Source: a virus
Reading direction: 5' to 3' (one strand)
Virus record (IMG/VR): IMGVR_UViG_3300042291_001568
Coordinates: 1-64,000 of that record
DNA length: 64,000 nt
Part shown: piece after piece, positions 3,344 through 64,000 of the stretch
Layout of the letters: the number at the start of each line of letters is the position of its first letter
Numbering within the stretch: the stretch's first letter is position 1
Program-made: the position numbers and the translations under genes
The notes under the pieces: model-generated
Databases searched by the model: none
Seen by the model: the letters and a program-made list of their open reading frames with translations, nothing else
Told to the model about the DNA's origin: nothing

Positions 3344-3667
3344 ATGGAACTATACAAAATACGCATTATAGACACAGACACAACCTGGTTAGCTCAAGCA
3401 AGTTGCAAAGGAAAGTCTGATCTTTTCTTTGGCCACATTTCTGAGAGACCTTCGGCAAAAGCTAAACGTGAACAGGAAGCCGCTGCAATTTGTGCTGCCT
3501 GTGAAGTATCTACGGAGTGTAGAGAATACGCTAGAAGAAACAATGAGCACGGCTTTTGGGGCGGCGAAAACGAAGACGAACGCTACGCTGGTGGATTCCT
3601 TAAGGACCCGACAATATCCAGAAGGATAAAAGCTAGAACAGCTCGAGGCGGTTGCACGCCTAGCTAA
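3344..3667 (+). CDS. whiB: WhiB-family transcription factor
   Basis: WxxxAxC, LFF, CxxCxVxxEC and GFWGG turn (4 Cys). Confidence 0.92.
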   Translation: MELYKIRIIDTDTTWLAQASCKGKSDLFFGHISERPSAKAKREQEAAAICAACEVSTECREYARRNNEHGFWGGENEDERYAGGFLKDPTISRRIKARTARGGCTPS

Positions 3668-4578: not shown

Positions 4579-4740
4579 AGTTGCTTTTTTTCTTCTTCGT
4601 TTTGTTCTTTATTGTCGAGAGAGTTCGGTATAAGCTCGGCGTGATTGTGTAGCATGCATTGCTCTGATTCTTCAAACCAGGATATTACATTTGCTATAGT
4701 TACATTTACGTTCTTCACAAAAGCACCATTCCTTTTTATT

Positions 4741-5547
4741 TTATAGCTCAGTAGTAATGATCATGTGGTCGTCGTACGCGTATTGAGTGTCTGGCGGAGA
4801 GGCACTTACAGTAAGAGCCCGTAGGAGCCATCTGTCTGTTCCATCGTATCTGGCAGTAAATGATTTTCTACCGTGCACTAGTTTATGATTGTCCAGTGTC
4901 AACACGTCTCCTGCTTGAAGAGATACTTCTTTTGTGTTGTCTGCTATCGCTATAGTAATGGCGTCTAGAGCTTCTTGGGCTTGGAAAGTTTTCCCTCGCA
5001 TAAAGAACTGGTCAAAACAGATTTCTAATCCGTTAGGCGTGTCTCTTAAGATAGGCAAAAGCACGCTTCTATTCGGCTCTCCATTCGTGCGGAAGCTTTC
5101 ATCTATTGCCGTAACAAACAACGGCTCTTTTAAGCAAGAGATTGTTTTTTTGTCTAGTGACGCAACTATGCTGTCAACTGTTGCAAAAGTAGTAAACGCC
5201 TCTGTGTCTCCGCGCAAGCACATCAAAATTACCTTGGACGGCGGATATGGATGAAATGCTGTTTCGGTGTGGAGCTCTAGGTTTGTCTTTGAAGATGAAG
5301 ATATTTGTGCTGTTTCTAGTTTCTTAATTGGAAAGATACTCTGGATTAGACGACCATTTTGTTCTTGCTTGTATCCTGTCGGTATTCCATTTTTATAAGC
5401 TATTTTTCTAAGGACACTAATTGCCTGGTCTATTTGCGGTGTTTCATCTAAAGACGTCGGCGTAGGAGGTATTTCGCCAATGTCTGCACCTTTGACTAGT
5501 TCCCAGCTCATTGGTTTGTCATTTCCAAAAGTCCAAATACTCGGCAA
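4741..5547 (-). CDS. Fe(II)/2-oxoglutarate oxygenase, clavaminate synthase/AsnO-like (TauD/TfdA superfamily)
   Basis: HxE iron motif (LELHTETAFHPYPP), DNHKLVHGR distal His, RYDGTDRWLLR 2OG-binding Arg. Confidence 0.88.
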   Translation of the reverse strand: MPSIWTFGNDKPMSWELVKGADIGEIPPTPTSLDETPQIDQAISVLRKIAYKNGIPTGYKQEQNGRLIQSIFPIKKLETAQISSSSKTNLELHTETAFHPYPPSKVILMCLRGDTEAFTTFATVDSIVASLDKKTISCLKEPLFVTAIDESFRTNGEPNRSVLLPILRDTPNGLEICFDQFFMRGKTFQAQEALDAITIAIADNTKEVSLQAGDVLTLDNHKLVHGRKSFTARYDGTDRWLLRALTVSASPPDTQYAYDDHMIITTEL

Positions 5548-46753: not shown

Positions 46754-46785
46754 TCACGTATGCGGTGAGAGTATATGATGAAGCA

Positions 46786-47292
46786 ATGAACACTGACAAC
46801 ACTCATGAACACGATGCGCCTGTGGCAGTCGAGGTACCAGAAGTAATTGCTGTACCAGAAGTAATCGCCGAAGTAGAAGTACTCGCCGAAGTAGAAGCAC
46901 CTGCGGTACTCAATGTACCTGCTGAGCCACAAGCATCTGCGCCACTTGACAAGTTTGAACTACCATCGCCAGCACCTGATGCTTTCGTAAAGCGTGCAGG
47001 TGTAGTCGTTACCGGAGGTGCAACAGACTCCGTGTATCTTGACAAGTGCGTGTTCAAGAATACGGGTGCTCGCAAATCACTCTCAGTTCATCACCTTCAA
47101 CGTCGCCTCGTCGAGTTGGGTTACCACAACGCACTCGGAGATCCTGACGGCTGGTACGGTGACGATACTCGTGCTTGCGTTCATGCATTTCAGAAAGACA
47201 GCAACATTGATGGCGATGGCATTATGGATGCCACCACACTTGAAGCGTTGTTTGCTCGAGATCCACACGTGACCGTCGTACTCGTCAACTAA
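46786..47292 (+). CDS. peptidoglycan-binding-domain protein with EV(I/L)A repeats
   Basis: VHHLQRRLVELGY...DGWYGDDTRACVHAFQ...DGIMDATT; no catalytic domain evident. Confidence 0.75.
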   Translation: MNTDNTHEHDAPVAVEVPEVIAVPEVIAEVEVLAEVEAPAVLNVPAEPQASAPLDKFELPSPAPDAFVKRAGVVVTGGATDSVYLDKCVFKNTGARKSLSVHHLQRRLVELGYHNALGDPDGWYGDDTRACVHAFQKDSNIDGDGIMDATTLEALFARDPHVTVVLVN

Positions 47293-49599: not shown

Positions 49600-51357
49600 G
49601 TGGGCGTTTTCCGCCGAGATTTTATTGAGCCAACACGCAGGACTGGCAAGCCTGTAGCACGATCATCCGCGCAGCCGACCTTTCCTTCTTCCCCAGGATA
49701 TTCTGTAGCACAGTCAGCACCATACTCAGCGCCACGAGCTTTGACAGCAGCGGCCGCACAGGTACGAGTCAATGACAAAGGCGAAGCCGAACAGTTTAAG
49801 AACCGTCGTGCCGCAAGCTCGTCTGCTTGGCAGTCAGAGGCTTGGGAATACTACGATGCCATTGGCGAAGTCAAGTACGCCTTTAACTTAGTTGCGTCAG
49901 TTGTTTCACGTATTCGTATTTATCCAGCAGTAATTGAAAACCAAGCTGAAACTCCAGTGTCGGTACGTAGCTCTTCTCAGATTGACCAGCGCTTAGCTGC
50001 AGCAGCCGAGCGCGCGCTTCTTCGTCTTGACTCAGCGTACGGTGGCCAAGCAGGATTGCTTCGAGATGCCGCGCTCAATATAAGCGTCACCGGCGAATGC
50101 TACTTAGTGCAAATGCCTGCGCAAATCGGATCTCAAATTCCTGAGTCGTGGGATATTCGCTCAGTTGATGAAGTACAAGTTGATGCAAAAAATACTTATG
50201 GAATTGTCGGTCGTAGGGACTTGCTCACTGGGAGTAACAACAGCGGTGGCGGAAATCGCAACAAGGGAATAGTTGCGCTGCCATCGACTTCGTTTGTTGG
50301 TCGCATCTGGCGCGCGCATCCACGATTTTCTGAAGAAGCCGACTCGTCACTTCGAGGACTGCTTGATCTTTGCGCAGAATTGTTGCTATTAAATAGAACG
50401 TTCCGTGCCACAGCTCGCTCACGCTTAAACGCTGGTGCGTTGTACCTTCCTGACGGACTCAGTGTTGCGGCATCTGCTGATCCTGATTATCCGTATGATG
50501 ACGAGAACAATATGAATCCAGGTATCACGGCTGAAGAAGCTGGCGACGAGTTTGAAGATCAACTCATTGATGCGATGACAACGCCAATTCGTGATGAAGA
50601 TTCTGCATCAGCAGTTGTTCCTTTGATTATCCGTGGTCCTGCTGAGCTTGGCGACAAGATTAAGCAATTCAAGTTTGAGCGCTCGTTTGACCCGGCGCTT
50701 GCGCAACGAGCTGATCGCGTCTTAGACAGAATTCTTCAAGGACTTGACGTTCCAAAAGATATCGTCACTGGTCTTGCGAATGTTCGCTATTCAAATGCAT
50801 TGCAAATTGACGAGTCACTGTACAAAGCACATATTGAACCGTTAATGCTACTTATCGCTGACGCACTTACAGTTGTTTACCTTCGTCCGTACCTTATTGC
50901 TAACGGTTTTGATGAAGGCGACGTAAGGCGTATCACCGTATGGTACGACCCAAGCGCCGTCGCAACTCGTAATGACAGAGCAGCTGACGCTGACTCCGGC
51001 TTTGATAGAAAAGCTATTTCGTTTGATACATGGAGGCGTGCACACGGTTTCAGCGAAGCAGATGCGCCGACACCGGATGAAGTCGCACTTCGTATGTTGT
51101 TTGAAAAAGGAAGCATTTCTCCAGAACTTACTGAGTCAATGATTGGCGCGTTCGCTCCAGAGATCATAAAAGCTACTAGAGCAGCTCAACAAGCTTCAAG
51201 CGTAGCTCCAATGCCCGCCAACATAATGGACATGTTGCAAGGTGGACAGCCAAGCGCCGCACCACCGCCAGAGCAACCTACACAAGGACCTCCACCAGAG
51301 ACGTTAGCAGAACCGCAAGTGGCCGTGGACTTAGGTCCTCAAGCGCCACCGCAGTAA
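49600..51357 (+). CDS. portal protein
   Basis: 585 aa following TerL and DUF1360; WQSEAWEYYDAIGEVKY...SRIRIY...GECY...GRIWRAHPR pattern of actinophage portals. Confidence 0.8.
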   Translation: MGVFRRDFIEPTRRTGKPVARSSAQPTFPSSPGYSVAQSAPYSAPRALTAAAAQVRVNDKGEAEQFKNRRAASSSAWQSEAWEYYDAIGEVKYAFNLVASVVSRIRIYPAVIENQAETPVSVRSSSQIDQRLAAAAERALLRLDSAYGGQAGLLRDAALNISVTGECYLVQMPAQIGSQIPESWDIRSVDEVQVDAKNTYGIVGRRDLLTGSNNSGGGNRNKGIVALPSTSFVGRIWRAHPRFSEEADSSLRGLLDLCAELLLLNRTFRATARSRLNAGALYLPDGLSVAASADPDYPYDDENNMNPGITAEEAGDEFEDQLIDAMTTPIRDEDSASAVVPLIIRGPAELGDKIKQFKFERSFDPALAQRADRVLDRILQGLDVPKDIVTGLANVRYSNALQIDESLYKAHIEPLMLLIADALTVVYLRPYLIANGFDEGDVRRITVWYDPSAVATRNDRAADADSGFDRKAISFDTWRRAHGFSEADAPTPDEVALRMLFEKGSISPELTESMIGAFAPEIIKATRAAQQASSVAPMPANIMDMLQGGQPSAAPPPEQPTQGPPPETLAEPQVAVDLGPQAPPQ

Positions 51358-51376: not shown

Positions 51377-52444
51377 GTGAACACGAACTGTCAGTCATGT
51401 GACATAGCATGCGTTTGCACAGCAGGTGCATGTGTTTGTATGCCAGAATGCACGTGCGGTTGCCGCGACGTGACTGGCGTGATTGTAATAACTGACGCCG
51501 CTGACGGATACACAAATGGTGGAATGCGTAGTGGCAAATACGTCATACCAGAAGAGAGCGAACTTGCAGATGCTCTCATTGAGATAACGCAAAGGTACGG
51601 CAAGTTCAATAGCGATGACACTGGTGTCTGGGCTGGATACACGCCAGGCGCGCAAAACGAATTAGCCAGCATCGGCGTTAAGTGCGGCAACTGCATTCTA
51701 TATGAAGGCGGCACTTCTTGTAAAATAATTGAAGCGCAAGTCGAGCCAGACGGGTATTGCCGTTTTGCGCTTATCCCAGATGGGACGGTAACCGCTGCAG
51801 CGTCTAAGCCCGCACCGAAAAAAGATCGCATACGTGGATCAGATACAAATAAAAAAGGATCTGCATCTGGCGGTAAAAAAATAGTTTTTTCTGACAAAGT
51901 AGAAAAGGCTTTATCAAACAAAGTAGAAGAGCATAATAAAAAAGCGTCTGAAGGAAGAAAAGCTACTCTTTCAATGCTCAAGGCAGTTTATCGCCGAGGC
52001 GCCGGTGCATTTTCAAGTTCGCACAGGCCAGGAGTTGGCCGTGACCAATGGGCAATGGCTCGCGTTAATGCGTATCTTCGTCTGCTAAGGACTGGCCGAC
52101 CAGCCAATCCAAACTACAAACAAGATAATGACCTTCTTCCTGCTAAGCATCCTAAGTCGTCGAGAAAAGATTTAGCGATTACAGCATCGGCAGCTGCAAG
52201 TGCTGAATTGATTGTTCACATAGAAAGTAAAGATGCGTACATGTCACCTGAGCATGCGATATTGCGCTTTACAGAATTCTCAGGACTAAACTACGACTCA
52301 GTTCCTATTTTTCGCGCAGCTTGGATGCGCGCTGTAGCTGCTAATGAAGATCCGTACGAAAGAACATCACAGTTGGCAATAACAATGTACAATAGTAAAG
52401 ACGCAGATCTGCTACCACGCAAAAAGACAGGCGATAAAAAATGA
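51377..52444 (+). CDS. head-module protein: Cys-rich N-terminus, HiPIP-like CxxC motif, AVYRRG/RVN domain
   Basis: CQSCDIACVC...CTCGC; KCGNCILY...DGYCRF; LKAVYRRGAGAF...QWAMARVNAYL. Confidence 0.7.
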   Translation: MNTNCQSCDIACVCTAGACVCMPECTCGCRDVTGVIVITDAADGYTNGGMRSGKYVIPEESELADALIEITQRYGKFNSDDTGVWAGYTPGAQNELASIGVKCGNCILYEGGTSCKIIEAQVEPDGYCRFALIPDGTVTAAASKPAPKKDRIRGSDTNKKGSASGGKKIVFSDKVEKALSNKVEEHNKKASEGRKATLSMLKAVYRRGAGAFSSSHRPGVGRDQWAMARVNAYLRLLRTGRPANPNYKQDNDLLPAKHPKSSRKDLAITASAAASAELIVHIESKDAYMSPEHAILRFTEFSGLNYDSVPIFRAAWMRAVAANEDPYERTSQLAITMYNSKDADLLPRKKTGDKK

Positions 52445-55400
52445 GCAACTTGCATAATGGATCTAAATTACGCAAAAAAGATGTACACAGCATTCGTGAG
52501 GCAATTCTCTCGATGGTACAAGAAGCGAACCTTCGCACTCTTCCTGAGCGTAGGGTGTCTGACAAAGCGGCTATCACTGTTGCTAACAGGGATCTTGAAA
52601 AGACAAAAAACGCAAGTGTAGCAAAGCGCGAGTTTTCCGCGCTTCGAGCAGTTGGCTCGTTTATCTCTCTTGCAACGATTAACAAGGTAACTGAAGCATC
52701 GCTGCAAAATAGTGATCTATTGGCTATCGGACATCCTTTCTCAACAAAAGCACACAGCATGACCGCAGCTTCGCTGCGCAACGAGCGCGCTAAGTGGATT
52801 GCAGCTGACGAATACATCGACAGCTCAATACGCTCTTTGGTTATTAAAGCTCATGGATATGAAGAAAATTCAATGGAGCGAGCACATGCTTTTGCACGAC
52901 TCGCTGCAATGGGACCAGGATTCGTGCCAATCACTGCATCGATTGATCTCAATACTGCTACATCCGCGTACACCGAGTTCGTATTTGGCCTTGGCCTTGG
53001 CGGCAACTCAGATATGGCTAGAAGGCTTAGGGCGAAAATGCAACGCCGTGACCGCCTTGGACGTTTTGCATTTATGGGCGGTGGATTCTCGTTTAGCTTC
53101 CGCAGCAAAGATGGCAGGTTTAGCAAAGTATCTGGCCGTGTAGTTGGCGCATCTGGCGATCAAGATAGCATCGACATTGAAGTAAAGAATCATCCAAGAC
53201 TCGCTGACGGTATTTATGCTATGCCGTCATCTAGAGGTACCGCAGTTAGAGCCATTCTTGATGATGAAATCATTAAAGATCTGCCACAGGCTGACATTGA
53301 TATAGCAGCAGATGATGTATTTGTCGACGAAGCAAGTCTTACGCGAATGATGGCTCCGACTGGCTGGACCACAGAAGAATCGTCAACTCAAGGTGGCAAA
53401 GCAGTCAGCTGGGTTCACAAGAGTGAAGACGGTTACGAGGTCTATGACTCACCAGGCGATCCTTTCGGTCGCTTTCAATTGCGCAGAGAAAAAGGCAATG
53501 GCGCAAGACAACCTTTTCCAAAAGTTAAGTCATGGGCAGACGTTCAAAAGCAAGCAATTTCAGACCAAGATCTTTACAAAGACTATCTTGAAAAAGAGCA
53601 AATCAATCAAGATAAAAACAAAGCGTTTGATGAAGCAGCAAAGTCTGGTGAAGGCCCTCCTAGTAAGGCGCTTCCCGGCCGAGCTTGGGTCAAGCATGAA
53701 AACGGACAATGGTATGAGCGCGAGCTTGGTAGAAACTATGACGTTGCAGACGAAGAACTTCAGAAAATAGCTAAAGAAGCTACTGGACCATACCTCCCAC
53801 CGAAAGACAACGACTTCGGTAAAAAATACAAAACCTCAACAGGTAAGTGGAAAGAATGGGACGAAGGCAGTGATGAGTCTTGGCAGTACAAGCAGGATTA
53901 TCAAAAGCGTCTGAACGGTGAATACTCAAAACTTAAGCGTCTGCAAGAAGCGCAAAAGGCTGGACTGTTTGATCCAAAGTCAGACATCGCTACTGTGCGC
54001 GACATCAATGGCGACAGCTCAGTAGGCGAGCAACTCCGTAGCGCTATCACCGATACTGCGGCAGTGCGGTTTAACTATGATGGAAAATACGATGTTCAGT
54101 TCACTCCGAAAAGCTCGTATGTAAACAAAAAAACTGGCAAAACAAACTTTGTTGGTTTAGACACTAAAGGCGTACAACGCACGTATGCTGCTGACAAAAT
54201 TGCTCCACCAAAGTCGGCTGCAAAAACAGAAGTAAAAGCAACAATTCCAGATGCACCAGAAGCTCCACCTGTAGACACAACACCAGATGTTGTTGATCTC
54301 AAAGCTGCAATTGAAGGAATGAAACTTGGCGAAACTAAAGAATACGTTGCAGGTCTCGCAGCTAAAAAACAAAAAGTACGATTCAACTACAGCGGCTCAG
54401 AGCGGGTCGTTGAGCCGATTGAAGTATGGGTCAATGGCCAGACAGGCCGAATCAACCTACGCGCCATTGACAAAGACGTAAAGAAGAACTTTAGCTTTGA
54501 CAAGATTGAAGCACCTAAGCCTTCAGAGCGCGACATCGCACGTGACCAGCGCAACGCGGACCGCGTAGACGAAAACATCAACAACCCAGACAACTGGGAA
54601 CTAAAGCCAGTGGGGTACCCCGCCACGCGAAGTGAGTGGAACTACATTGGCCCACGGCCACGGTCCGAGGACAGCGTTGGTCCTTACATTTCGCCACCAC
54701 AGTCTGTTCTTGACAAGTATGCTAAAGACTTGTTTGGCCCTAAAGACGGCGGCCCTAACGTAGACGAAACTGACACAAGCACAGACTTCCCGATGAGTCC
54801 AGAAGAGCGTGCAGCAGCTAAGGCCCGACCTAGCGAGCGCGTGACAAATCTTGACGGACTAAAAGGCGATGAGCTTACAGCAGCCATTGATAAAGCAATA
54901 GCAGACAAAAAGCCACTTAAGTTTACATACCACGAAAAAGAGCGCCTGGTTCGCCCACTCGAAGTATGGACAAATCCAAAAACTGGAAAAGTCAACTTGC
55001 GTGCTGTTGAGGCCGATGCCGATACTGATAAGAACTTTACACTTGAAAAAATTGGCAAACCAGTTGATGAGAAAATCAAACAAATTGATGCCGATGACAT
55101 TATCAACATGCCACAAGAGCAGCTCGATGACGTTGTCGATGCGCTGTGGCCAGCAGCGGCTCCTTCACAGCAGGTAGCGCCAGAAGCAACAGGCCGTCGT
55201 ATTGTTGATGCATCAAGCAGCACTGCAGTTGAGCGCGTTGAATACGACCCAGCTACAAAAGAATTGTTCATTCAATTCAAGTCATCAAAAGATGGAAAGG
55301 GTGGTGGCGTTTACAAGTACAGCGACGTTGCTCCCGAGTTTGTAGACAGACTTGAAAGCGGATCAATTGGAAAAATGATTCCAGAACTCAAGAAGAATAA

Positions 55401-58400
55401 CTCTTCTGAGAAACTAGATGAATTCCCAGCAGGCGGAAGCGGAGGCCCAGGCGAGCCACCAGCAGGCGGCCCAGTCGTACCGGGGAACACCGGTGACGAT
55501 GCTGTTGATAAACTGCGCCAAGCACAGGCGCTCATCGCCGAAATGGAAGACTCGGGCGCGTTTGATGCTGCAAAAGTAGATGACGCAATAAAGCTTGTCA
55601 ATAGCGCATCAAGTGATTTTGATTCTTTCGTAAAGTCAAAGGATGCTGTCAACCAAGGCAACGCTGAAGGTCAAATTAAGAATCTTTTAGAAGAACTCGA
55701 CGATCTTAAGTCTAGAGAAGATGTTGATCTTGCTCCTAATTTTGATGACTATATTCTTGACGTTGAACTCGACGTCATAAGATTCGGCGAGTCAGACGAT
55801 GACGGCCCAGGCGAGCCACCAACAGGAGGACCATCAGCAGGCACCCCAGGTGACGATGCTGTTGATAAACTGCGCCAAGCACAGGCGCTCATCGCCGACT
55901 TGGAAGACTCAGGCAAGTACGATGCTAAAAAAGCAAATGCTGCAATAAAACTTGTCGAAGAAGCATCGAAAGATTTTGACTCGTTCTTGATGTCAAAGGA
56001 TGCTGTCAACCAAGGTGATGCTGAAGGTCAAATTAAGAATCTTTTAGAAGAACTTAAGGACCTTAGGAACAGAAAAGATGTTGATCTTGCTCCTAACTTC
56101 GATGACTACCTTCTCGATGTTGAGGCTGACATCATACGATTTAGCGAACTAGACGATGACGGCACGGGAGGCCCAGGTGCCCCAAGCGAGCCACCAGCAG
56201 GCGGCCCAGTCAATCCTGACAAGTACGAAACAGAGTACGGCTTTGACTATCCTAAAAAAGTTACCGACGAAAACGGCAACCAAGTCAGCCGCGTGATTGT
56301 CGATGTTGTCACAGAAGACATGTCGCTAGAAGAGATTGAAAGAGACTTCAAGAAAAAGTTCCCTGGTGGCGCGATGAAAGTTATTCGTCAACGCGGAACT
56401 AACGGTTGGCCCGAAGTGCAATACGACGTTCGTCCAGGAGACGAAGACAAACTCGGTAAGTGGTACAGCGGCGACCTTGAGCCTTATGACTATGCCGGTG
56501 ATGCCGACGCACTTGACGATGCCGATACTCGTAACTTGCCAACAGCTCAAGACTACATGGATGATCCAGCAGTTGCTGAAGATGCTGATGCCGGGTCGTT
56601 CTTTGATGAACCAATGTTTGATTCGCTATTTGATACGCCAGATGGCGCGTACAAACTTAATGTTTTCGAAGCGTATCGCCCAGTCGGAAGAACAACAGAA
56701 GACAGTGAAGATTTTACTGATGATCCAGACGTTCTTGCCACTAAGTTTGATGTAACAGAGCTTGGAAGAGCGCTGGCACAGGCAGTTCTTCCACTTACAA
56801 ATGACCAAGCCACAGGTTACGGAAACCTTCCATTTGAAAGCGGCGACGAGCCAGTAAAAGCTGAGGCGTTGTACGAGGCGCTTGGTGCAGCGAGAATGAC
56901 GCCAAACCTTGTTCTTGCTGGTCTATACGACTCGATGCTCGACCCAGAGCGTGGGCTAACTAATGTTGAGCGAATTACTGATGTTTCCCGCAATGACAGC
57001 TCGCTTGACAATGGCATTGATGATCCATTCACTGCTGAAATTCTTCCCGTGGCTGACCGCAGCGCAGAAATTGATGCTGCCATCGCGCTAAACGAAAAGA
57101 TTGGCTCGTATAGATACGCAAGCAACGGCGTTCAAAAAATGCGTGATCATTCTGAGAATAATCCTAAAATGCTGGATATTGCAAAGGACCTGACACAGCG
57201 AGAGGATGATGATGTTCAATTTGACACCATCAACCTTATTGACTTGTTAGATAAATATCTCCCGTGGGCTTCGAGTAGCGATGCCGATGAGCGCGACGCG
57301 TTTAGAGGCCTTTGGGGAATGATGATGTCGCTTGATGGAGGAAGTTCCATTGAAAGCGACTCACGATTTGAAGGATTTAGGCGAGAAATTCTTAGTTCGT
57401 TTGAACGAAGGAGTGGAAACCCAACTCTTGCGCAAGACGACTATGACGAGTTCGTTCTACAGTATGGTGGTTTTCCAGAGTTCGTAGCTGGCAAGAAAGC
57501 TATCGCCGATGGACAAGACGATCTGTCCGCTGAAACAAGCGCTGCAGCATTTTTTAGACTTGTCAAAGCAAGTTCCCGCCCGAATACTGCTCCATTGTGG
57601 AGGTCAATCGGCGTAGCGGAAGGCTCGAGCGAGTTTCAGAAGTACACAGTACCTGGATCACGATTTGACATGGACCCGCGTTCATTTACCGCGCAGTCGT
57701 TAGAAACTGGGACATTTGGCGACATAGCGTATTCGCCTACTGACAAAAAAATTGAACGAGTAATCTTTAAACTAGATCCGGGCGACGGAGATACTATTTC
57801 AGCTGAGTCCGTTTCTTGGTTCCCAGACGAGCGCGAAAATATTGCATTTGGTTCATTTGAAGTTATTGAAGTAACGCGGCAACCGTCGCAGCTTGGCAAG
57901 ACGCGTAATGACGATTACGTTGTCCGTATTCGTAAAGTTGATAGTGGCAATCAAACAGATGAGCAAAGCGCGCTGCCAGCGCCAGGGCAATTCTCCGAAG
58001 CAACGCAGCACGGAGACATTTCTGGTTGGACGCAGGTTGGCAATCAAGCAGGGTCTAACCCTGGAGGATTCTATGACGACCCAGCCGGGAACAGCTACTA
58101 CATTAAACAAGCAAGGTCACAGTCTCATGCGGACAATGAAGCTCTTGCATCGGCCTTCTACAAAGAGCTTGGAGTGCCAGCCGCTGAAGTTGGTTTTGGC
58201 GAAAAAGACGGAGTGTTGCATTTAGTCACTCCGTTGATTGATGGTGCTACACCAAACTTTGAAGAAAAAGTGTATGGCGGAGACAATGAATACGTCAAGA
58301 AAGTCCAAGACAACTTCGCAGTTGACGCGTGGCTTGCTAACTACGACATTGTTGGAATGGTCTATGACAACGTTGTTTCAGATGCAAACGGCGAGCCAGT

Positions 58401-61400
58401 AAGAGTTGATCCAGGCGGCGCGCTGATGTGGCGAGCTCAAGGCAAGCCAAAGCCATGGTTTGGTGACACTGTTGACGAGCTCGACAGCATGCGCGATCCA
58501 GATGTTAACGAGCAAGCAGCTAACGTATTTGGCACAATGAGCGATGATCAAATCAAAGCAAGCGCGCAAAAAGTTGCTAACCTTACGCCAGAAAGAATTG
58601 AAGAAATTATTGACTCGGTTGTCACAAGCCCAGACGATGCTGCACTTCTCAAGGAGCGGTTGCTAAACCGTCGTCAATACATTATGGATCGTTTTGGCTT
58701 TGAAGAGCCTACAGACGTTCTCGGTGAGCCACAATCAATTGCTTCAGAAATGGGCATTGCTTCTAAGGATCTTCAAGCAGGCGATGTCACAGTCGGCGAT
58801 TCATTCGTTATTGAGCGCATATTCACTGATGCAGATACTAAGAAAGGCAAGGTAAGCGTTCAAGGATACTTCCCTGGCCACGAGTCACAAGTTAAGCAGT
58901 GGAACGAAAACACAGTCATTATGGCAACACGAGGCGGACAGCTTCCTGCTAAAGGCGACGCACCAGCGTTACACAGACCAGTCGCGCCTGCCAAGCCGCA
59001 GCCTGCCGCTTTCACTGGCTCAATCGCAGATGAACTCTCTGGAGCTCAAAGCTGGGACGAAGTTCGCAGCATCCTACGTGGAAAAACAATCGTATTCTTT
59101 GACTACGAAACAACTGGATTCCCAGACAAGAAGACAGGCGACAAGAGCAGCAACCAACCAGCGCAACTTGGCGCAGTAAAAGTTGTTGATGGTCAGATAG
59201 TTGACCGTTTCAACTTGTTCATGAATCCAGAAGAGCCTCTTGGCGGTTGGTCGCGCGATAACCTTAAGGGCGCAGACGGCACTCCACTAACCGATGAGCA
59301 ACTTGCCACGGCACTGGACAAAGGCGAAGCGCATAGGCAGTTCATTGAATGGGCTGGCCAAGATGTGATTTTAGCAGCACACAACGCTCCATTTGACCTT
59401 GGCGTTATGAATGAAACGCTTGGCAAAAAAGGACTAGAGTACGCGCCAACCGGTGGAGTTATTGACACTCTCAAGCTTGCGCAAACAGTGATTGCATCAA
59501 AGAAAGCTGCAGCTCATCACGTAAACAAAGATCAAATTAAGACTGGAGACCCGAGTGGGCCAGATACCCACCGACTAGGCGACCTTGCATCTCACTTTGG
59601 CGTTGAACTTGGAGACGGGTGGCACACTGCAGATGCCGACTCTGAAGCAACGTCAAACGTCTTAAACTCTCTTATTGACTACGCAGCCGGAGCAGACGGT
59701 GGAGACACGTCGCTCCGCAGCGTTCTTGATGCGGGTGACAGCTACCAAAGCAACATGGCCGAGTTTGAGGCAAGAAGTGCACAGTTCAAAGATGAGCTAG
59801 CTAACTATGAAATACAAAAAGCAATTGCCGCAGCATGGAATTGTCGTGGTGGAACAGTTGCAAGTATCGCAGCTCTTATCGCAGCAATTGACGACCCAGA
59901 CTGCAACGTCCCGTCAATTGATGACCTTATCAAGGCAGCAACTCCTGGTGGTACAGACTTTGTAGATCCAGAAGGTCTTCATACAGGAGATTCTTCTACG
60001 GGAGACGCTTACACGCTAGAAGCAGAAGAAATCCCAGAGATGGACGGCGTTGAGCCTCCGTTTATTCCAGGAATTGAAGATCCAGACGATGAATTCCGTC
60101 CAAGCGATCAGCAGCAGGCAGTAGTTGAAGCTTTGTTTACTGGCGGCGACATTGTTATTCGCGCAGCCGCTGGCGCGGGCAAGACGAGCACACTAAAGAT
60201 CCTCGCACGACGACTACAAAAGCACAAGCCAAAAGAGCGCGTGGCGTACATTGCCTTTAACGCTACAGTTGCCGCTGAAGCTCGTGAATCGATGCCATCA
60301 AATGTTGAAGTACGCACCGCTGACTCTATTTCAGTCAACTGGACAAAACTGAACTTTCCAAAGTTGCATAAGAAAAAGGGCGCAAAAGATACGCTTTACA
60401 GCCCTAGTGACATAGCTACTCATCTTAAAGTTCCAGCGATGACTGGAATGGACAATAAAGGCAAGCCAGCAAAACTGCCAGTGTCAGAGTCTGTCAAAGA
60501 ATTGCGTAAGGCAATTTACCAATTTACCATCAGTGCTGATAAAGAAATAGGACCACAGCATTTTGACTCCGATGCAGTAGAAGCTTCAGACATACCAAAG
60601 CTTGTTGAGGCCGCAGAAAGATGGTGGGCAGACATCTTAAGCGAAAACGGAAAAATGCTGTTTAGCTTTCCGCACATGAAAAAGATGTGGGCGCTTTCAA
60701 ACCCAGATCTATCAGATGACAGTGGCGGGCTTAAGACTCCAGCAAGCGTTATTTTTATGGATGAAGCGCAAGACATTAACCCGGTCTTAGGCCGTGTTAT
60801 TGCAGCACAGACAGCCCAAAAAGTCTACGTTGGCGACGAAAACCAAGCTATCTACCAGTTCATGGGCGCAGAAGATGAGCTACAAAAAGTAACAGTTCAG
60901 CACGATCTTCCTCTTACTAAGTCATATCGTTTTGGCGAAGTAATCGCGAGAAACGCAAACAGGTATCTACGGTTTAAAGAACGGTTCCTCGGCGAAAAGA
61001 AGACTTTTGCTGTTGAGGGAGCAGGCAAGTTCCCTGGAGAAATAGTTGCGGCTGGGTCTATGAAAAACGCTCAAGCTGTGCTTGTTCGTTCAAACGCTGG
61101 CGCATTTAGAGAAGTGCGCACTGAACTTTTAAACGACAGAATAGTTGGAGTCACAAAAGGCTTCAAAGCAGACTTAGATAACTTCATCATAGCTGTTGAC
61201 TGGCTTCAAGCACCAGAGGCCACGCGGGGAAGTCGCCCAATGCGGGTTCCAGAGGAACTCCGCGGATACAAGAATTGGGCAGAAATTGTCGACGAAGCCG
61301 CTAAGGAAGGCGACAGCGACTTTAGCCGCAAGACACGAATCTTAGTTGACGACGTTGAACAACTTGGACTCGAAGAACTTAAGTCATTGGCCAGCCGCGT

Positions 61401-64000
61401 CAAAGTACTTAAAGGCAAAGTCAATACAAAAGTTGTCGATGACGGCTCTCTTCCTGATCTTCCAGACGACCTGTCACCAGGCGTTGAAGGAGATGTTGGC
61501 CGTGACATTACTTTCTCAGTTGAAGAAGATGCAATTGTTCTTAGAGGAAGCACATACGGTGTAAAAGATCAAATAAAAACAGCCAATGGTGGTCCAGCAA
61601 AATATGACGGTGACCGCAAAGCTTGGATTATTCCAGCCAAAACAGACAAAGCTCGCCAAGCAGGACTTGAAAAACTTCAAAAAGTTCTTGCACCAGAAAC
61701 AGTCGCAGAGGCGTCATACGTAGACGTAGTTGTTTCATCAGTTCACCAAGCCAAAGGCGCCGAGTGGGACGAAGTTCGCATGGGCAACGACTTCTTTGGG
61801 CCACGAAAGCCGAAGAAGTCTGACGGCGGCGAAGATGCCGATTGGATTATGCCAACCCCAGTTGAGCTCAACCTCGCGTACGTTGGCGTTACTCGAGCCA
61901 AGAAAACTCTTGACCCTGGCTCACTCAATTGGATTGATAGTTGGGTAAAATCAGATGACCCAGAAATTATGGGACTTGTTGACGGCGTGGTTGTTGCACC
62001 AGAAGCACCAGAAGCACCAGAAGCACCTACAGCAGCAAGTGAAGATGATTCAAGTGCGCCAACAACTTCTCCTGATGTTGACGATGAAGTAGCTGAAACT
62101 GCTGAAACAATAGAAAGTGTTGGAGAAGCTGTTGAAGGAACTAACGATCCATTTGGGCCTGGCGGTGAAGCGCCGTCAGCAGAGCAGCAGGCAAAAGATT
62201 TAGAAGATTCATTTAACGAGTTAAGCGACTATGCGGATTCACTTACTGATCCAGAAGGCGAAAACAACCTTAAGACAGGCGCAAAGAATAAAGTAAAGAA
62301 AGCGCAAAAAGATCTAAAGCAACTTCAAAAAGATCTTGAGGATGGAAGCATTACGCAAGCAGAGGCTACAACCAAGCTTCAGCAAATGATTGCTGAGTTC
62401 CCAGATAGCGACTCAAATACTGAAGAAGCTCTTGACATGTGGACTTACCGGCAGACAATGATAGATCTCGAATCTGTGCTTACGGGAGAGCGCTATATGC
62501 GCCCGACTGGGAAAGGACTTCCACCTAGAGATGCAGTTGACAGCAAAGGCCGACCAGTTGGCTTTTCAAAGAATGGAAAGTTTATTCGCCTCGGAACTCG
62601 AGTCCGCGACAAGTGGGGATTCTCTGGAACAGTTGATTCGTACAACGAAAACGACTGGATTAACGTCAATGTTAGATATGACATTGATCCACGAGATCCT
62701 GCCAAGGTAAAGAAAGGCAAGTGGGGTCCAGGAGTTGCGCGAGTCTCTAAGAATAGCCGCACTCTTACCGTCATCGAGCCCGGCGACCGTGAACCATGGA
62801 TTGACAACGGAAGCGTTCCTGAAAACAAAAAGCCAAAGCAAATAGAAGAGCAAACTAGAATTCATCTAGACATGCTCGAAAAACGTGGTGAAACCGCGTG
62901 GGACGGCTCCGAAAAAGATAGACAAGAGCCAGGCGGCGACCTCCCAAAAGCTGAGGCCCCGCAAGGGGCTACCGAGGCTCCTGAAGAAAGCAAAGCATCA
63001 AAAGCAGAATTCATAAAAAATTCTGACTTTGTTGACGTACTCGCAGAGTACTACACCACGGCTAAACAAGCGTTCAATAAAGGCACACTTACTAAAAAAG
63101 ATTGGGACAGAGTACAGTCTTATTTTGGCTCGGATTCAATAGCCGTTAACAACTTTTTACGTAGTGGGAAGCGGCTGTGGCTTACCAATGACAAAGATAC
63201 TATTGAAAACGTAATCAAATCTATTGACGATATTTTCGATGTTGCTGGTGTTGAATTGCCAGGAAATGTAATCGTATTCCGAGGCATTTACGATGCAGAT
63301 AAGCTCTTCCCAGATGGCGTAAAACCTGGCGACGTGTTTGACGATCTTGGGTACTCTTCTACAAGCATTAAATCTGATGTTGCACGGACCTTTACCAACA
63401 CTGATGAAACAGCAACAGTCTTAGCAATAACTGTTCCGAGCGGAACAAAAATGCTAGCAAACAATACAGCTATTCAGGCTGGTCAACAGAAGAAGGAAAA
63501 AGAGATTTTGCTGCCAAGAGGATTGACATTTAAGGTCACTTCTGTTACCGAGCGCACTAAGCCGAATAAAGCATATTCATTTTTGCCTGAAACGTACAGA
63601 GAAATAGCAGTTGAAATTGTCAGCACTCCTAACGCAAAAGCACCTAAAGCAGAAGAAATACCAGCACCTCCACCATGGAATCCTGACGTAGACGCACCGG
63701 AAGAAACAGCACCCACAGTTGCCAATGCAAAACCAAGCGTCGAGCTTGCAGCTGCTGCTGACGATGCGCGCGTATCATTAGATGCGTACTTTGATGAGAG
63801 CTTTGACAAGGACGATGTTGAGCAGGCAACTAATAGTTTTTCCTTAAAAAAGACTAGCCACGGACAAGCAGCAGACGCAGTCGTTTACCGCAAAGGCGCT
63901 GACGGTTTTGAAGTACTAATGATTTCAAGAGAGTACGGTCCGTTCCGTGGAGCAATGGCTTTGCCTGGTGGATTTAGAGACGGCGAAGAGTCATTCGCTG
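52441..64000 (+). CDS. giant polyvalent protein (more than 3850 aa, runs off the window end)
   Basis: Frame +1 opens at ATG 52441 (ATGA overlap). The ORF track lists no frame +1 ORF after this point, consistent with no stop. Recognisable WYL-like x3, KTSC, ART x2, HipA/PI4K-like kinase, DEDDh exonuclease, UvrD helicase and Nudix motifs. Confidence 0.9.
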   Translation, partial: MSNLHNGSKLRKKDVHSIREAILSMVQEANLRTLPERRVSDKAAITVANRDLEKTKNASVAKREFSALRAVGSFISLATINKVTEASLQNSDLLAIGHPFSTKAHSMTAASLRNERAKWIAADEYIDSSIRSLVIKAHGYEENSMERAHAFARLAAMGPGFVPITASIDLNTATSAYTEFVFGLGLGGNSDMARRLRAKMQRRDRLGRFAFMGGGFSFSFRSKDGRFSKVSGRVVGASGDQDSIDIEVKNHPRLADGIYAMPSSRGTAVRAILDDEIIKDLPQADIDIAADDVFVDEASLTRMMAPTGWTTEESSTQGGKAVSWVHKSEDGYEVYDSPGDPFGRFQLRREKGNGARQPFPKVKSWADVQKQAISDQDLYKDYLEKEQINQDKNKAFDEAAKSGEGPPSKALPGRAWVKHENGQWYERELGRNYDVADEELQKIAKEATGPYLPPKDNDFGKKYKTSTGKWKEWDEGSDESWQYKQDYQKRLNGEYSKLKRLQEAQKAGLFDPKSDIATVRDINGDSSVGEQLRSAITDTAAVRFNYDGKYDVQFTPKSSYVNKKTGKTNFVGLDTKGVQRTYAADKIAPPKSAAKTEVKATIPDAPEAPPVDTTPDVVDLKAAIEGMKLGETKEYVAGLAAKKQKVRFNYSGSERVVEPIEVWVNGQTGRINLRAIDKDVKKNFSFDKIEAPKPSERDIARDQRNADRVDENINNPDNWELKPVGYPATRSEWNYIGPRPRSEDSVGPYISPPQSVLDKYAKDLFGPKDGGPNVDETDTSTDFPMSPEERAAAKARPSERVTNLDGLKGDELTAAIDKAIADKKPLKFTYHEKERLVRPLEVWTNPKTGKVNLRAVEADADTDKNFTLEKIGKPVDEKIKQIDADDIINMPQEQLDDVVDALWPAAAPSQQVAPEATGRRIVDASSSTAVERVEYDPATKELFIQFKSSKDGKGGGVYKYSDVAPEFVDRLESGSIGKMIPELKKNNSSEKLDEFPAGGSGGPGEPPAGGPVVPGNTGDDAVDKLRQAQALIAEMEDSGAFDAAKVDDAIKLVNSASSDFDSFVKSKDAVNQGNAEGQIKNLLEELDDLKSREDVDLAPNFDDYILDVELDVIRFGESDDDGPGEPPTGGPSAGTPGDDAVDKLRQAQALIADLEDSGKYDAKKANAAIKLVEEASKDFDSFLMSKDAVNQGDAEGQIKNLLEELKDLRNRKDVDLAPNFDDYLLDVEADIIRFSELDDDGTGGPGAPSEPPAGGPVNPDKYETEYGFDYPKKVTDENGNQVSRVIVDVVTEDMSLEEIERDFKKKFPGGAMKVIRQRGTNGWPEVQYDVRPGDEDKLGKWYSGDLEPYDYAGDADALDDADTRNLPTAQDYMDDPAVAEDADAGSFFDEPMFDSLFDTPDGAYKLNVFEAYRPVGRTTEDSEDFTDDPDVLATKFDVTELGRALAQAVLPLTNDQATGYGNLPFESGDEPVKAEALYEALGAARMTPNLVLAGLYDSMLDPERGLTNVERITDVSRNDSSLDNGIDDPFTAEILPVADRSAEIDAAIALNEKIGSYRYASNGVQKMRDHSENNPKMLDIAKDLTQREDDDVQFDTINLIDLLDKYLPWASSSDADERDAFRGLWGMMMSLDGGSSIESDSRFEGFRREILSSFERRSGNPTLAQDDYDEFVLQYGGFPEFVAGKKAIADGQDDLSAETSAAAFFRLVKASSRPNTAPLWRSIGVAEGSSEFQKYTVPGSRFDMDPRSFTAQSLETGTFGDIAYSPTDKKIERVIFKLDPGDGDTISAESVSWFPDERENIAFGSFEVIEVTRQPSQLGKTRNDDYVVRIRKVDSGNQTDEQSALPAPGQFSEATQHGDISGWTQVGNQAGSNPGGFYDDPAGNSYYIKQARSQSHADNEALASAFYKELGVPAAEVGFGEKDGVLHLVTPLIDGATPNFEEKVYGGDNEYVKKVQDNFAVDAWLANYDIVGMVYDNVVSDANGEPVRVDPGGALMWRAQGKPKPWFGDTVDELDSMRDPDVNEQAANVFGTMSDDQIKASAQKVANLTPERIEEIIDSVVTSPDDAALLKERLLNRRQYIMDRFGFEEPTDVLGEPQSIASEMGIASKDLQAGDVTVGDSFVIERIFTDADTKKGKVSVQGYFPGHESQVKQWNENTVIMATRGGQLPAKGDAPALHRPVAPAKPQPAAFTGSIADELSGAQSWDEVRSILRGKTIVFFDYETTGFPDKKTGDKSSNQPAQLGAVKVVDGQIVDRFNLFMNPEEPLGGWSRDNLKGADGTPLTDEQLATALDKGEAHRQFIEWAGQDVILAAHNAPFDLGVMNETLGKKGLEYAPTGGVIDTLKLAQTVIASKKAAAHHVNKDQIKTGDPSGPDTHRLGDLASHFGVELGDGWHTADADSEATSNVLNSLIDYAAGADGGDTSLRSVLDAGDSYQSNMAEFEARSAQFKDELANYEIQKAIAAAWNCRGGTVASIAALIAAIDDPDCNVPSIDDLIKAATPGGTDFVDPEGLHTGDSSTGDAYTLEAEEIPEMDGVEPPFIPGIEDPDDEFRPSDQQQAVVEALFTGGDIVIRAAAGAGKTSTLKILARRLQKHKPKERVAYIAFNATVAAEARESMPSNVEVRTADSISVNWTKLNFPKLHKKKGAKDTLYSPSDIATHLKVPAMTGMDNKGKPAKLPVSESVKELRKAIYQFTISADKEIGPQHFDSDAVEASDIPKLVEAAERWWADILSENGKMLFSFPHMKKMWALSNPDLSDDSGGLKTPASVIFMDEAQDINPVLGRVIAAQTAQKVYVGDENQAIYQFMGAEDELQKVTVQHDLPLTKSYRFGEVIARNANRYLRFKERFLGEKKTFAVEGAGKFPGEIVAAGSMKNAQAVLVRSNAGAFREVRTELLNDRIVGVTKGFKADLDNFIIAVDWLQAPEATRGSRPMRVPEELRGYKNWAEIVDEAAKEGDSDFSRKTRILVDDVEQLGLEELKSLASRVKVLKGKVNTKVVDDGSLPDLPDDLSPGVEGDVGRDITFSVEEDAIVLRGSTYGVKDQIKTANGGPAKYDGDRKAWIIPAKTDKARQAGLEKLQKVLAPETVAEASYVDVVVSSVHQAKGAEWDEVRMGNDFFGPRKPKKSDGGEDADWIMPTPVELNLAYVGVTRAKKTLDPGSLNWIDSWVKSDDPEIMGLVDGVVVAPEAPEAPEAPTAASEDDSSAPTTSPDVDDEVAETAETIESVGEAVEGTNDPFGPGGEAPSAEQQAKDLEDSFNELSDYADSLTDPEGENNLKTGAKNKVKKAQKDLKQLQKDLEDGSITQAEATTKLQQMIAEFPDSDSNTEEALDMWTYRQTMIDLESVLTGERYMRPTGKGLPPRDAVDSKGRPVGFSKNGKFIRLGTRVRDKWGFSGTVDSYNENDWINVNVRYDIDPRDPAKVKKGKWGPGVARVSKNSRTLTVIEPGDREPWIDNGSVPENKKPKQIEEQTRIHLDMLEKRGETAWDGSEKDRQEPGGDLPKAEAPQGATEAPEESKASKAEFIKNSDFVDVLAEYYTTAKQAFNKGTLTKKDWDRVQSYFGSDSIAVNNFLRSGKRLWLTNDKDTIENVIKSIDDIFDVAGVELPGNVIVFRGIYDADKLFPDGVKPGDVFDDLGYSSTSIKSDVARTFTNTDETATVLAITVPSGTKMLANNTAIQAGQQKKEKEILLPRGLTFKVTSVTERTKPNKAYSFLPETYREIAVEIVSTPNAKAPKAEEIPAPPPWNPDVDAPEETAPTVANAKPSVELAAAADDARVSLDAYFDESFDKDDVEQATNSFSLKKTSHGQAADAVVYRKGADGFEVLMISREYGPFRGAMALPGGFRDGEESFA
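55444..56160 (+). repeat. internal tandem duplication of 357 bp (119 aa) in the giant ORF
   Basis: GGTGACGATGCTGTTGATAAACTGCGCCAAGCACAGGCGCTCATCGCCGA occurs at 55492 and 55849. Confidence 0.9.

Follow-up and report, generated by a model that had tools for sequence, protein, structure and literature searches.

Why does a phage devote 15.5 kb of its head-gene region to a single protein with at least 14 recognisable domains, and where does that protein act? This question is raised by the IMG/VR record IMGVR_UViG_3300042291_001568, which stems from an uncultured lake phage of actinobacteria. The window, that is, the whole stretch of DNA analysed here, comprises positions 1–64000 of this 116,822-bp record; the giant gene starts at 52441 and continues beyond the window end. 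In this study, we consider its product to be a polyvalent effector protein that is packaged in the virion and injected, thereby bringing its enzymes to act on the host, with a probability of roughly 0.6. A single uninterrupted open reading frame (ORF), intact catalytic motifs, a conserved position in the head module and an architecture of constant ends around a variable interior were observed.

The ORF occupies 52441–64000 of the window and contig positions 52441–67992 as a whole. Frame +1 is open from 52441 to 63999 in the ORF listing (3853 codons), as had been noticed in the sequence-only reading of the window, and extension along the contig located the stop at 67990–67992 without any split of the frame. 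The complete protein has 5183 amino acids (aa) and a mass of ~570 kDa, estimated from its length. The nearest in-frame stop upstream is at 52435, and the ATG and the stop codon of the preceding DUF5824 gene overlap (ATGA, 52441–52444), which suggests that the two genes are translated as one unit. The record is a linear metagenome assembly with a CheckV completeness of 87%, and such a record might in principle join several genes through assembly or sequencing error. However, a stop-free frame of 15.5 kb greatly exceeds what chance would produce, and independent assemblies contain collinear ORFs of 2940–7986 aa, including the complete, PCR-checked genome of Actinomycetia phage DSL-LC01. Equally long ORFs in relatives make an artefact unlikely, and we give it practically no weight.

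The giant gene is located among head genes. Upstream are the genes for the large terminase, a peptidoglycan-binding protein, the portal (two genes upstream, 49600–51357; phrog_776, E 2e-104) and the 355-aa DUF5824 protein (51377–52444; Pfam DUF5824, E 3e-8); the giant ORF with all its domains, the portal gene and the DUF5824 gene lie on the plus strand. Downstream, beyond the window, a 239-aa gene is followed by a 1559-aa protein with a head-maturation-protease region (contig 68706–73385) and then by the major head protein (contig 73522–75369). The placement in a head module, proposed earlier from the window, is borne out by these neighbours on both sides. The order of portal, small genes, giant gene, protease-containing protein and major head protein is kept in DSL-LC01 and in three divergent loci.

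The family was searched with the N-terminal 530 residues against proteins of similar length, and domains were counted from a precomputed Pfam listing. At least 36 clusters were found, with proteins of 2940–7986 aa on contigs of 12–152 kb, and the family is abundant in lake actinophages; our literature searches found no description of it. A BLAST map revealed collinear conserved blocks at aa 1–390, the WYL units, aa 1370–2090, the exonuclease, the helicase, aa 3200–3515 and aa 4362–4850. Scanning IMG/VR with a C-terminal alignment yielded 26 loci, and among those that include the gene start, only one lacks the N-terminal block. The interior of one divergent subgroup follows another order, namely, exonuclease, Nudix, kinase and WYL. 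The shared N- and C-terminal blocks, together with this reordering, indicate that the ends are constant and the cargo is variable. With an E limit of 0.001, a deep profile search with the core of the C-terminal block (C1) retrieved 2022 cluster representatives, and a limit of 1e-10 retained 979; nearly always, the core is at the C-terminal end, in proteins of 2000–7000 aa. Three viral loci (L019, L014 and L007) contain two or three copies of a VIP2-type ADP-ribosyltransferase (ART), or a second kinase-like copy, in one ORF; judged from these sequences, some relatives have not only shuffled but also duplicated their cargo domains.

Ten domains had been assigned from the window: three WYL-like units, KTSC, a first ART with the motifs LWR/RSFT/DERE, a HipA/PI3-4K-like kinase, a DEDDh exonuclease, a UvrD-like helicase, a second ART of VIP2 type and the start of a Nudix domain at the window end. 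All ten were recovered where that reading had put them, and each was substantiated by profile, homology or fold evidence. The DEDDh 3′–5′ exonuclease (aa 2218–2407, 59092–59661) matches Pfam RNase_T (PF00929) with 54.8 bits against a cut-off of 24 (E 2e-14). Its motifs DYETTG (2221), HNAPFD (2314) and HTADAD (2395) are intact, and the PDB match is the PolC exonuclease domain. The UvrD-like helicase of superfamily 1 (aa 2555–3157, 60103–61914) is matched by Pfam UvrD-helicase, AAA_19 and UvrD_C, by phrog_1967 (E 2e-54) and by FBH1 in the PDB (E 5e-15). UvrD-helicase (PF00580; cut-off 23) scores 24.6 and 27.5 bits in two overlapping halves, and UvrD_C (PF13361) reaches 23.9 bits, slightly below its cut-off of 25.6; the motifs comprise Walker A AAAGAGKT (2575), DEAQD (2774) and VGVTRA (3148). 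Between the two enzymes (~59820–59930, aa ~2461–2495) lies the pattern AAAWNC...C.VPS, in which W, two Cys and P are nearly invariant family-wide, possibly as part of a small element that forms a disulfide or binds metal.

The presence of an exonuclease and a helicase in one such protein had been called unusual, and this judgement did not hold. Of the 36 clusters, 30 have the exonuclease and 23 the helicase; the two co-occur in 22, so the pair is a common core of the family. Such a pair is also typical of replication and repair, and related stand-alone helicases of Arthrobacter phages are annotated as DNA helicases. The giant protein might accordingly be a late enzyme complex that is never packaged and acts in the producing cell, for example on host DNA and on defence signals derived from nicotinamide adenine dinucleotide (NAD) during replication and packaging; the lack of any known head-anchoring domain in Pfam searches also fits this explanation. 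Nevertheless, the slot between portal and capsid protease is strictly kept over deep divergence, and the literature ties such a gene context to packaging (PMC9503650). We regard an unpackaged enzyme as unlikely, while granting it real weight.

The region of aa 1370–2100, which holds the first ART and the kinase-like domain, was aligned with 37 relatives and predicted by AlphaFold2 (AF2), with a mean predicted local distance difference test score (pLDDT) of 84.6. The kinase-like domain (aa 1855–2093, 58003–58719) is of an atypical kind and is matched by no Pfam kinase family, yet its fold and residues support the assignment. In a VIA search of the AF2 model, the domain resembled Helicobacter pylori CtkA (3akk) with Z 15.8 over 212 aa at 3.5 Å, followed by CotH (Z 13.7), PI4K-IIa (Z 12.5) and HipT/HipA (Z 11–12, with HipT at 12.1); LepB and actin-fragmin kinase were likewise among the matches, and Foldseek agreed. 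The G-rich loop (1871–1875), K1889, E1900, D1962/N1967/D1969, N1977 and D1990 are invariant in the 37 relatives, and most are invariant in a 38-member set. A single-sequence scan of viral contigs with this domain returned no relatives; an alignment-based scan did recover them. The same domain is present in two MuF-anchored polyvalent proteins (P0035 and P0068), which combine an N-terminal MuF with a C-terminal ART and share only the kinase-like domain with the giant protein. Its occurrence in MuF-anchored proteins speaks against an enzyme that stays in the producing cell. GenBank phage genes bearing the domain are labelled 'ADP-ribosyltransferase' or 'hypothetical protein'. One of them, in Pseudomonas phage Jeremy (86311–89952), encodes a 1213-aa 'ADP-ribosyltransferase' with the same kinase-like domain at 39% identity and is situated among small hypothetical genes, outside any head module.

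The first ART (ART1, R-S-ExE type, aa ~1700–1835, 57538–57945) has no Pfam match in whole-protein or segment scans, yet it is borne out by three lines of evidence. Its fold resembles that of Tre1 (6drh_F) with Z 9.2 over 152 residues in the VIA search of the AF2 model, where the aligned range (model 228–465, aa ~1597–1834) also covers helices of the preceding block; Foldseek matches of the model include Vis and Plx2a. R1721, R1747-S1748, E1797 and E1799 of the pattern R1721, R1747-S1748, E1797-x-E1799 are conserved across relatives. Finally, hhalign of the ART1 and ART2 profiles placed R, S and ExE in register (97 columns, pairwise E 0.0055). The preceding block (aa 1370–1700, 56548–57540) is mostly helical and kept in nearly all relatives, and its C-terminal helices pack onto ART1 in the AF2 model (m2518f7806781).

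The second ART (ART2, aa 3546–3714, 63076–63582) is of the VIP2/C3/Alt type and matches Pfam ADPrib_exo_Tox (PF03496; 72.7 bits against a cut-off of 23.4, E 3e-20). Its triad is intact (R3614, S3640-T-S at 3640–3642 and E3686-K-E3688), and the Alt-like phrog_802 matches with E 6e-13. The match to ADPrib_exo_Tox recalls a published 'Trojan horse' hypothesis for VIP2-like ARTs of freshwater actinophages (PMC6802176), by which the ART would be aimed at eukaryotic grazers that eat infected cells. Here, however, the ART belongs to a head-module protein of ~14 domains, and its partner domains (helicase, exonuclease, Nudix and WYL) indicate targets inside bacteria. Furthermore, Pfam, PHROGs and PDB searches of the whole protein, which did not extend to signal peptides, found no component for toxin binding or translocation. 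A weapon against grazers is thus very improbable. Upstream of ART2, block B3 (aa 3200–3515, 62038–62985) is kept in most relatives and has a small, beta-rich conserved core, for which Pfam gave chance-level hits only. The first Nudix domain (aa 3808–3941; 63862–64000 in the window, contig 63862–64263 as a whole) matches Pfam NUDIX (PF00293) with 61.7 bits (E 1e-16); its canonical box (aa 3844–3865) starts at 63970 and ends slightly beyond the window.

The N-terminal half of the protein contains putative binding domains. On the 501-aa segment of the three WYL-like units, Pfam WYL (PF13280; cut-off 21.8) reaches 28.3 bits; each unit is below the cut-off when taken singly. Unit 1 (aa 535–590, 54043–54210) has no Pfam match alone and is homologous to unit 3 (E 6e-6); unit 2 (aa 641–692, 54361–54516) scores 14.9 bits (E 0.028) and is 48% identical to unit 3 (E 1e-18); unit 3 (aa 813–871, 54877–55053) is the best Pfam WYL stretch, with 18.3 bits alone. 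KTSC (PF13619; aa 926–973, 55216–55359) passes its cut-off of 25 with 32.5 bits. A tandem helical module of ~120 aa with Pro/Gly-rich linkers follows (aa ~1015–1255, 55483–56205). Its two copies are 73% identical (E 6e-61), and the duplication looks recent because most relatives align little or not at all to this region.

Linkers rich in Pro, Gly and Glu separate the domains, and the giant gene is near the gene of a very large protease-containing protein. Both features would suit a polyprotein or internal head protein that enters the procapsid, is cut by the head-maturation protease and serves mainly as scaffold, inner body or ejection conduit, with its enzymes secondary; T4 Alt and the T4 internal proteins are processed likewise (see also PMC5512222). 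Against such a role, searches within the protein and in comparison with the head proteins revealed no recurring motif of cleavage type, and every enzyme domain has kept its catalytic residues, which suggests that the enzymes are important. A mainly structural role therefore appears decidedly doubtful.

The N-terminal block (aa 1–390, 52441–53610) defines the family; it is rich in invariant Arg and shows the motif QRRDRxGRF...GGG around aa 200. For aa 1–400, Pfam searches of 13 members with an E limit of 1 gave scattered chance hits only, and neither a PDB match by profile search nor a usable protein-atlas match was obtained. A 623-aa protein (P0111) on a 102,293-bp contig, equal in length to the longest one listed for family member P0079, has the second half of the block (from QRRDRxGRF, aa ~200–381) fused to a Pfam PI3_PI4_kinase domain. 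The fusion of half the block to a different kinase suggests a portable adaptor, on which P0111 may represent a second cargo.

The last 1330 residues lie outside the window and comprise a second Nudix domain and the family-universal C-terminal module. Nudix 2 (aa 4053–4206, contig 64597–65058) is RenU-like, with a match to mycobacterial RenU (PDB 6uuf, E 9e-17); Pfam gives 21.3 bits against a cut-off of 21.1, and the Nudix box is interrupted by an insertion. Block C1 (aa 4362–4850, contig 65524–66990) is present in 35 of the 36 clusters and in the 26 viral loci. The last 830 residues were modelled with 30 relatives by AF2 (m570ec24d62a4; pLDDT 82.1, predicted template modelling score 0.72), and a candidate DarT-like core of C1 (aa ~4642–4855, contig 66364–67005) was delimited by fold match only. 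DarT was the best non-helical fold match of this core in two search modes, namely, a search of 48,161 chains that did not depend on Foldseek and a second-look search. The core aligned to Escherichia coli DarT1 (8baq) with Z 7.6 over 156 of 208 residues (~75% of the DarT chain) at 3.6 Å, and to the DarTs of Thermosipho, Thermus and Mycobacterium tuberculosis (7omu, Z 6.9; 7omv, 6.7; 7yk3, 6.3); across these entries from four organisms, the alignments cover 142–156 residues. A PH/EVH1-like domain near the C-terminus (aa ~5089–5175, contig 67705–67965) is suggested by a weak fold match (Z 5–6).

The invariant residues of the C1 core are H4658 in the first strand, R4713, S4724, D4728, Y4736, N4776, D4779, E4800 in a strand, and K4804; for H4658, R4713, S4724, Y4736 and E4800, this was seen in an 18-member alignment. 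The succession H...Y...E agrees with ARTs of the H-Y-E class, and the R-to-S spacing of 11 residues equals the R52–S63 spacing in DarT1 (PMC11543638). Profile searches of the PDB, including one with an enriched 40-sequence profile, returned no DarT chain. Searches of Pfam with 18 members gave nothing recurrent for C1, no atlas score reached 0.9, the viral BFVD yielded no significant Foldseek match, and hhalign detected no relation between C1 and P0042, a protein that carries Pfam ART-PolyVal. Taken together, there are about even odds that the modelled C1 core is a DarT-like ART. Two other candidates were set aside: PDB profile matches of C1 to NSE2 and free serine kinase were at chance level, and a weak match to the glycyl-radical protein GrcA (aa ~4621–4697, E 0.024) was dismissed as chance.

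If the giant protein is indeed a packaged effector, the following course can be envisaged. It would be made late, alongside the head proteins, and the N-terminal block would probably load it into the procapsid, in the position held by MuF in classical polyvalent proteins. Release into the next host would probably occur with the DNA, either whole or in pieces. There, the two R-S-E ARTs, and probably the third, DarT-like one, would modify host proteins, and possibly DNA, at the expense of NAD+, and the kinase of CtkA/CotH/PI4K/HipA type would phosphorylate host targets. The DEDDh exonuclease and UvrD-type helicase would unwind nucleic acids and degrade them in the 3′–5′ direction, the two Nudix hydrolases might cleave NAD(H), ADP-ribose or related nucleotide signals, and the three WYL units and KTSC might bind ligands or nucleic acid. 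We infer packaging, injection, any cleavage into pieces and all of the substrates. ARTs, Nudix domains and other effectors in a head-gene context have been argued to be packaged and injected (PMC9503650 and PMC5512222). The kinase-like domain of the MuF-anchored proteins, the P0111 fusion and the split genes of Gordonia phage Sixama also point indirectly to a role as capsid cargo.

Several observations weigh against virion delivery and against parts of this course. The evidence for delivery consists of gene position and of analogy with packaged proteins of MuF, Alt and N4 type. Pfam searches found no MuF, portal or other known head-anchoring domain in the giant protein, and Phage_Mu_F (PF04233) was unmatched there and, at E up to 1, in 13 relatives with the N-terminal block. 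This block, the presumed loading signal, was without a recognisable fold or family in Pfam, PDB and atlas searches. A search for linker or cleavage motifs, within the protein and in comparison with the portal, DUF5824, protease and capsid proteins, yielded only chance 5-mers. In addition, a protein of ~570 kDa would need unfolding or prior cleavage to pass through a tail. To our knowledge, the sole precedent for tail passage at such a size is the 3500-aa virion RNA polymerase of phage N4. The third ART would depend on middling fold scores (Z below 8) with Foldseek E-values that are not significant, and a search of the whole phage record with Pfam DarT (PF14487), at E up to 10, was negative.

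A more specific version of the packaged-effector reading can also be proposed. By this version, the C-terminal module would be a new DarT-related, capsid-delivered DNA ART; the helicase and exonuclease would expose single-stranded DNA for it, thereby disabling the host chromosome within moments of injection, and the N-terminal block would be a new capsid-loading module that replaces MuF. This combination is speculative, and we consider it rather unlikely in full.

Two of the neighbouring genes deserve a brief description. The product of the gene directly after the large terminase (46765–47292) is a 175-aa protein with PG_binding_1, and the same pair is annotated in DSL-LC01. In the 1559-aa protein, the C-terminal part has matches to PHROGs for head-maturation protease and 'portal', and the N-terminal ~800 aa to families without a known function; its counterparts in relatives have 1395–1834 aa.

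Polyvalent proteins have been predicted to be the first strike of a phage on its host, and almost none have been studied at the bench. The interest of the giant protein lies mainly in its two universal end modules. If the N-terminal block is a capsid-loading signal, then it would constitute a second, MuF-like system of cargo delivery. If the C-terminal core is a DNA-directed ART, then phages would turn the anti-phage chemistry of DarTG on the host. Moreover, a widespread kinase-like domain, along with an ART domain, is mislabelled or overlooked by databases in phage proteins.

Among known single proteins, DarT toxins of DarTG (8baq, 7omv, 7omu and 7yk3) may be comparable with the C1 core in fold and in a compatible order of invariant H, R, S, Y and E. 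DarT is a toxin with the antitoxin DarG, whereas the C1 core would be the C-terminal part of a phage protein and has no sequence-level match to it. The kinase-like domain resembles CtkA, CotH, type II PI4K and HipA/HipT over its whole length (Z 15.8 to 11), with the G-rich loop, Lys, Glu, D-x4-N-x-D, DN and the metal-binding Asp conserved. ART2 is similar to phage T4 Alt through both phrog_802 and ADPrib_exo_Tox, and Alt is the experimental precedent for an ART that is packaged in the head and injected. T4 Alt has one domain in ~680 aa, and its route of capsid targeting and processing is known; nothing comparable to this route was found in the giant protein.

The nearest GenBank relative is WJZ48510.1 of Actinomycetia phage DSL-LC01 (3289 aa, OQ999401), which occupies the same slot after the portal and is 42% identical over aa 2–2087. 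It shares the N-terminal block, WYL units, ART1, kinase, B3 and C1; exonuclease, helicase, second ART and Nudix were absent by BLAST against the giant protein and in the precomputed Pfam listing. WJZ48510.1 is annotated as a 'hypothetical protein', and the passages of PMC10611076 that name DSL-LC01 are silent on it. A split counterpart is found in the cultured actinophage Sixama of Gordonia (L032, 31765–38213), where gp73 (774 aa, 'hypothetical', kinase-like, 35% identity) and gp75 (a 1285-aa ART) lie between portal and capsid protease. These are separate and much smaller genes with a MuF-like gene nearby, and Sixama is a usable laboratory model for such a split counterpart.

Polyvalent proteins as a class have been described with up to 15 domains and up to 12,242 aa, the latter in a Streptomyces plasmid, by Iyer, Burroughs, Anand, de Souza and Aravind 2017 (PMC5512222), and the 2022 survey of NAD+-ADPr (PMC9503650) is a further source on this class. 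The giant protein is alike in combining many effector domains (ARTs, kinase, helicase, nuclease and Nudix; 2 to 15 in the class) in one chain, in its virion or late-gene setting with terminase and portal upstream and protease and head proteins downstream, and in its predicted packaging and injection. It differs in that it has its own N-terminal and universal C-terminal blocks and no MuF or portal anchor. Its kinase is of CtkA/CotH/PI4K/HipA type, in contrast to the truncated Ser/Thr/Tyr kinase in PMC5512222. The same paper reports UvrD helicases for proteins of conjugative elements and mentions 'exonuclease' once; unlike in that account, exonuclease and UvrD helicase form a common core in the family of the giant protein. 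The class of polyvalent proteins is thus known, and the giant protein is a very large and domain-rich member of an undescribed family within it.

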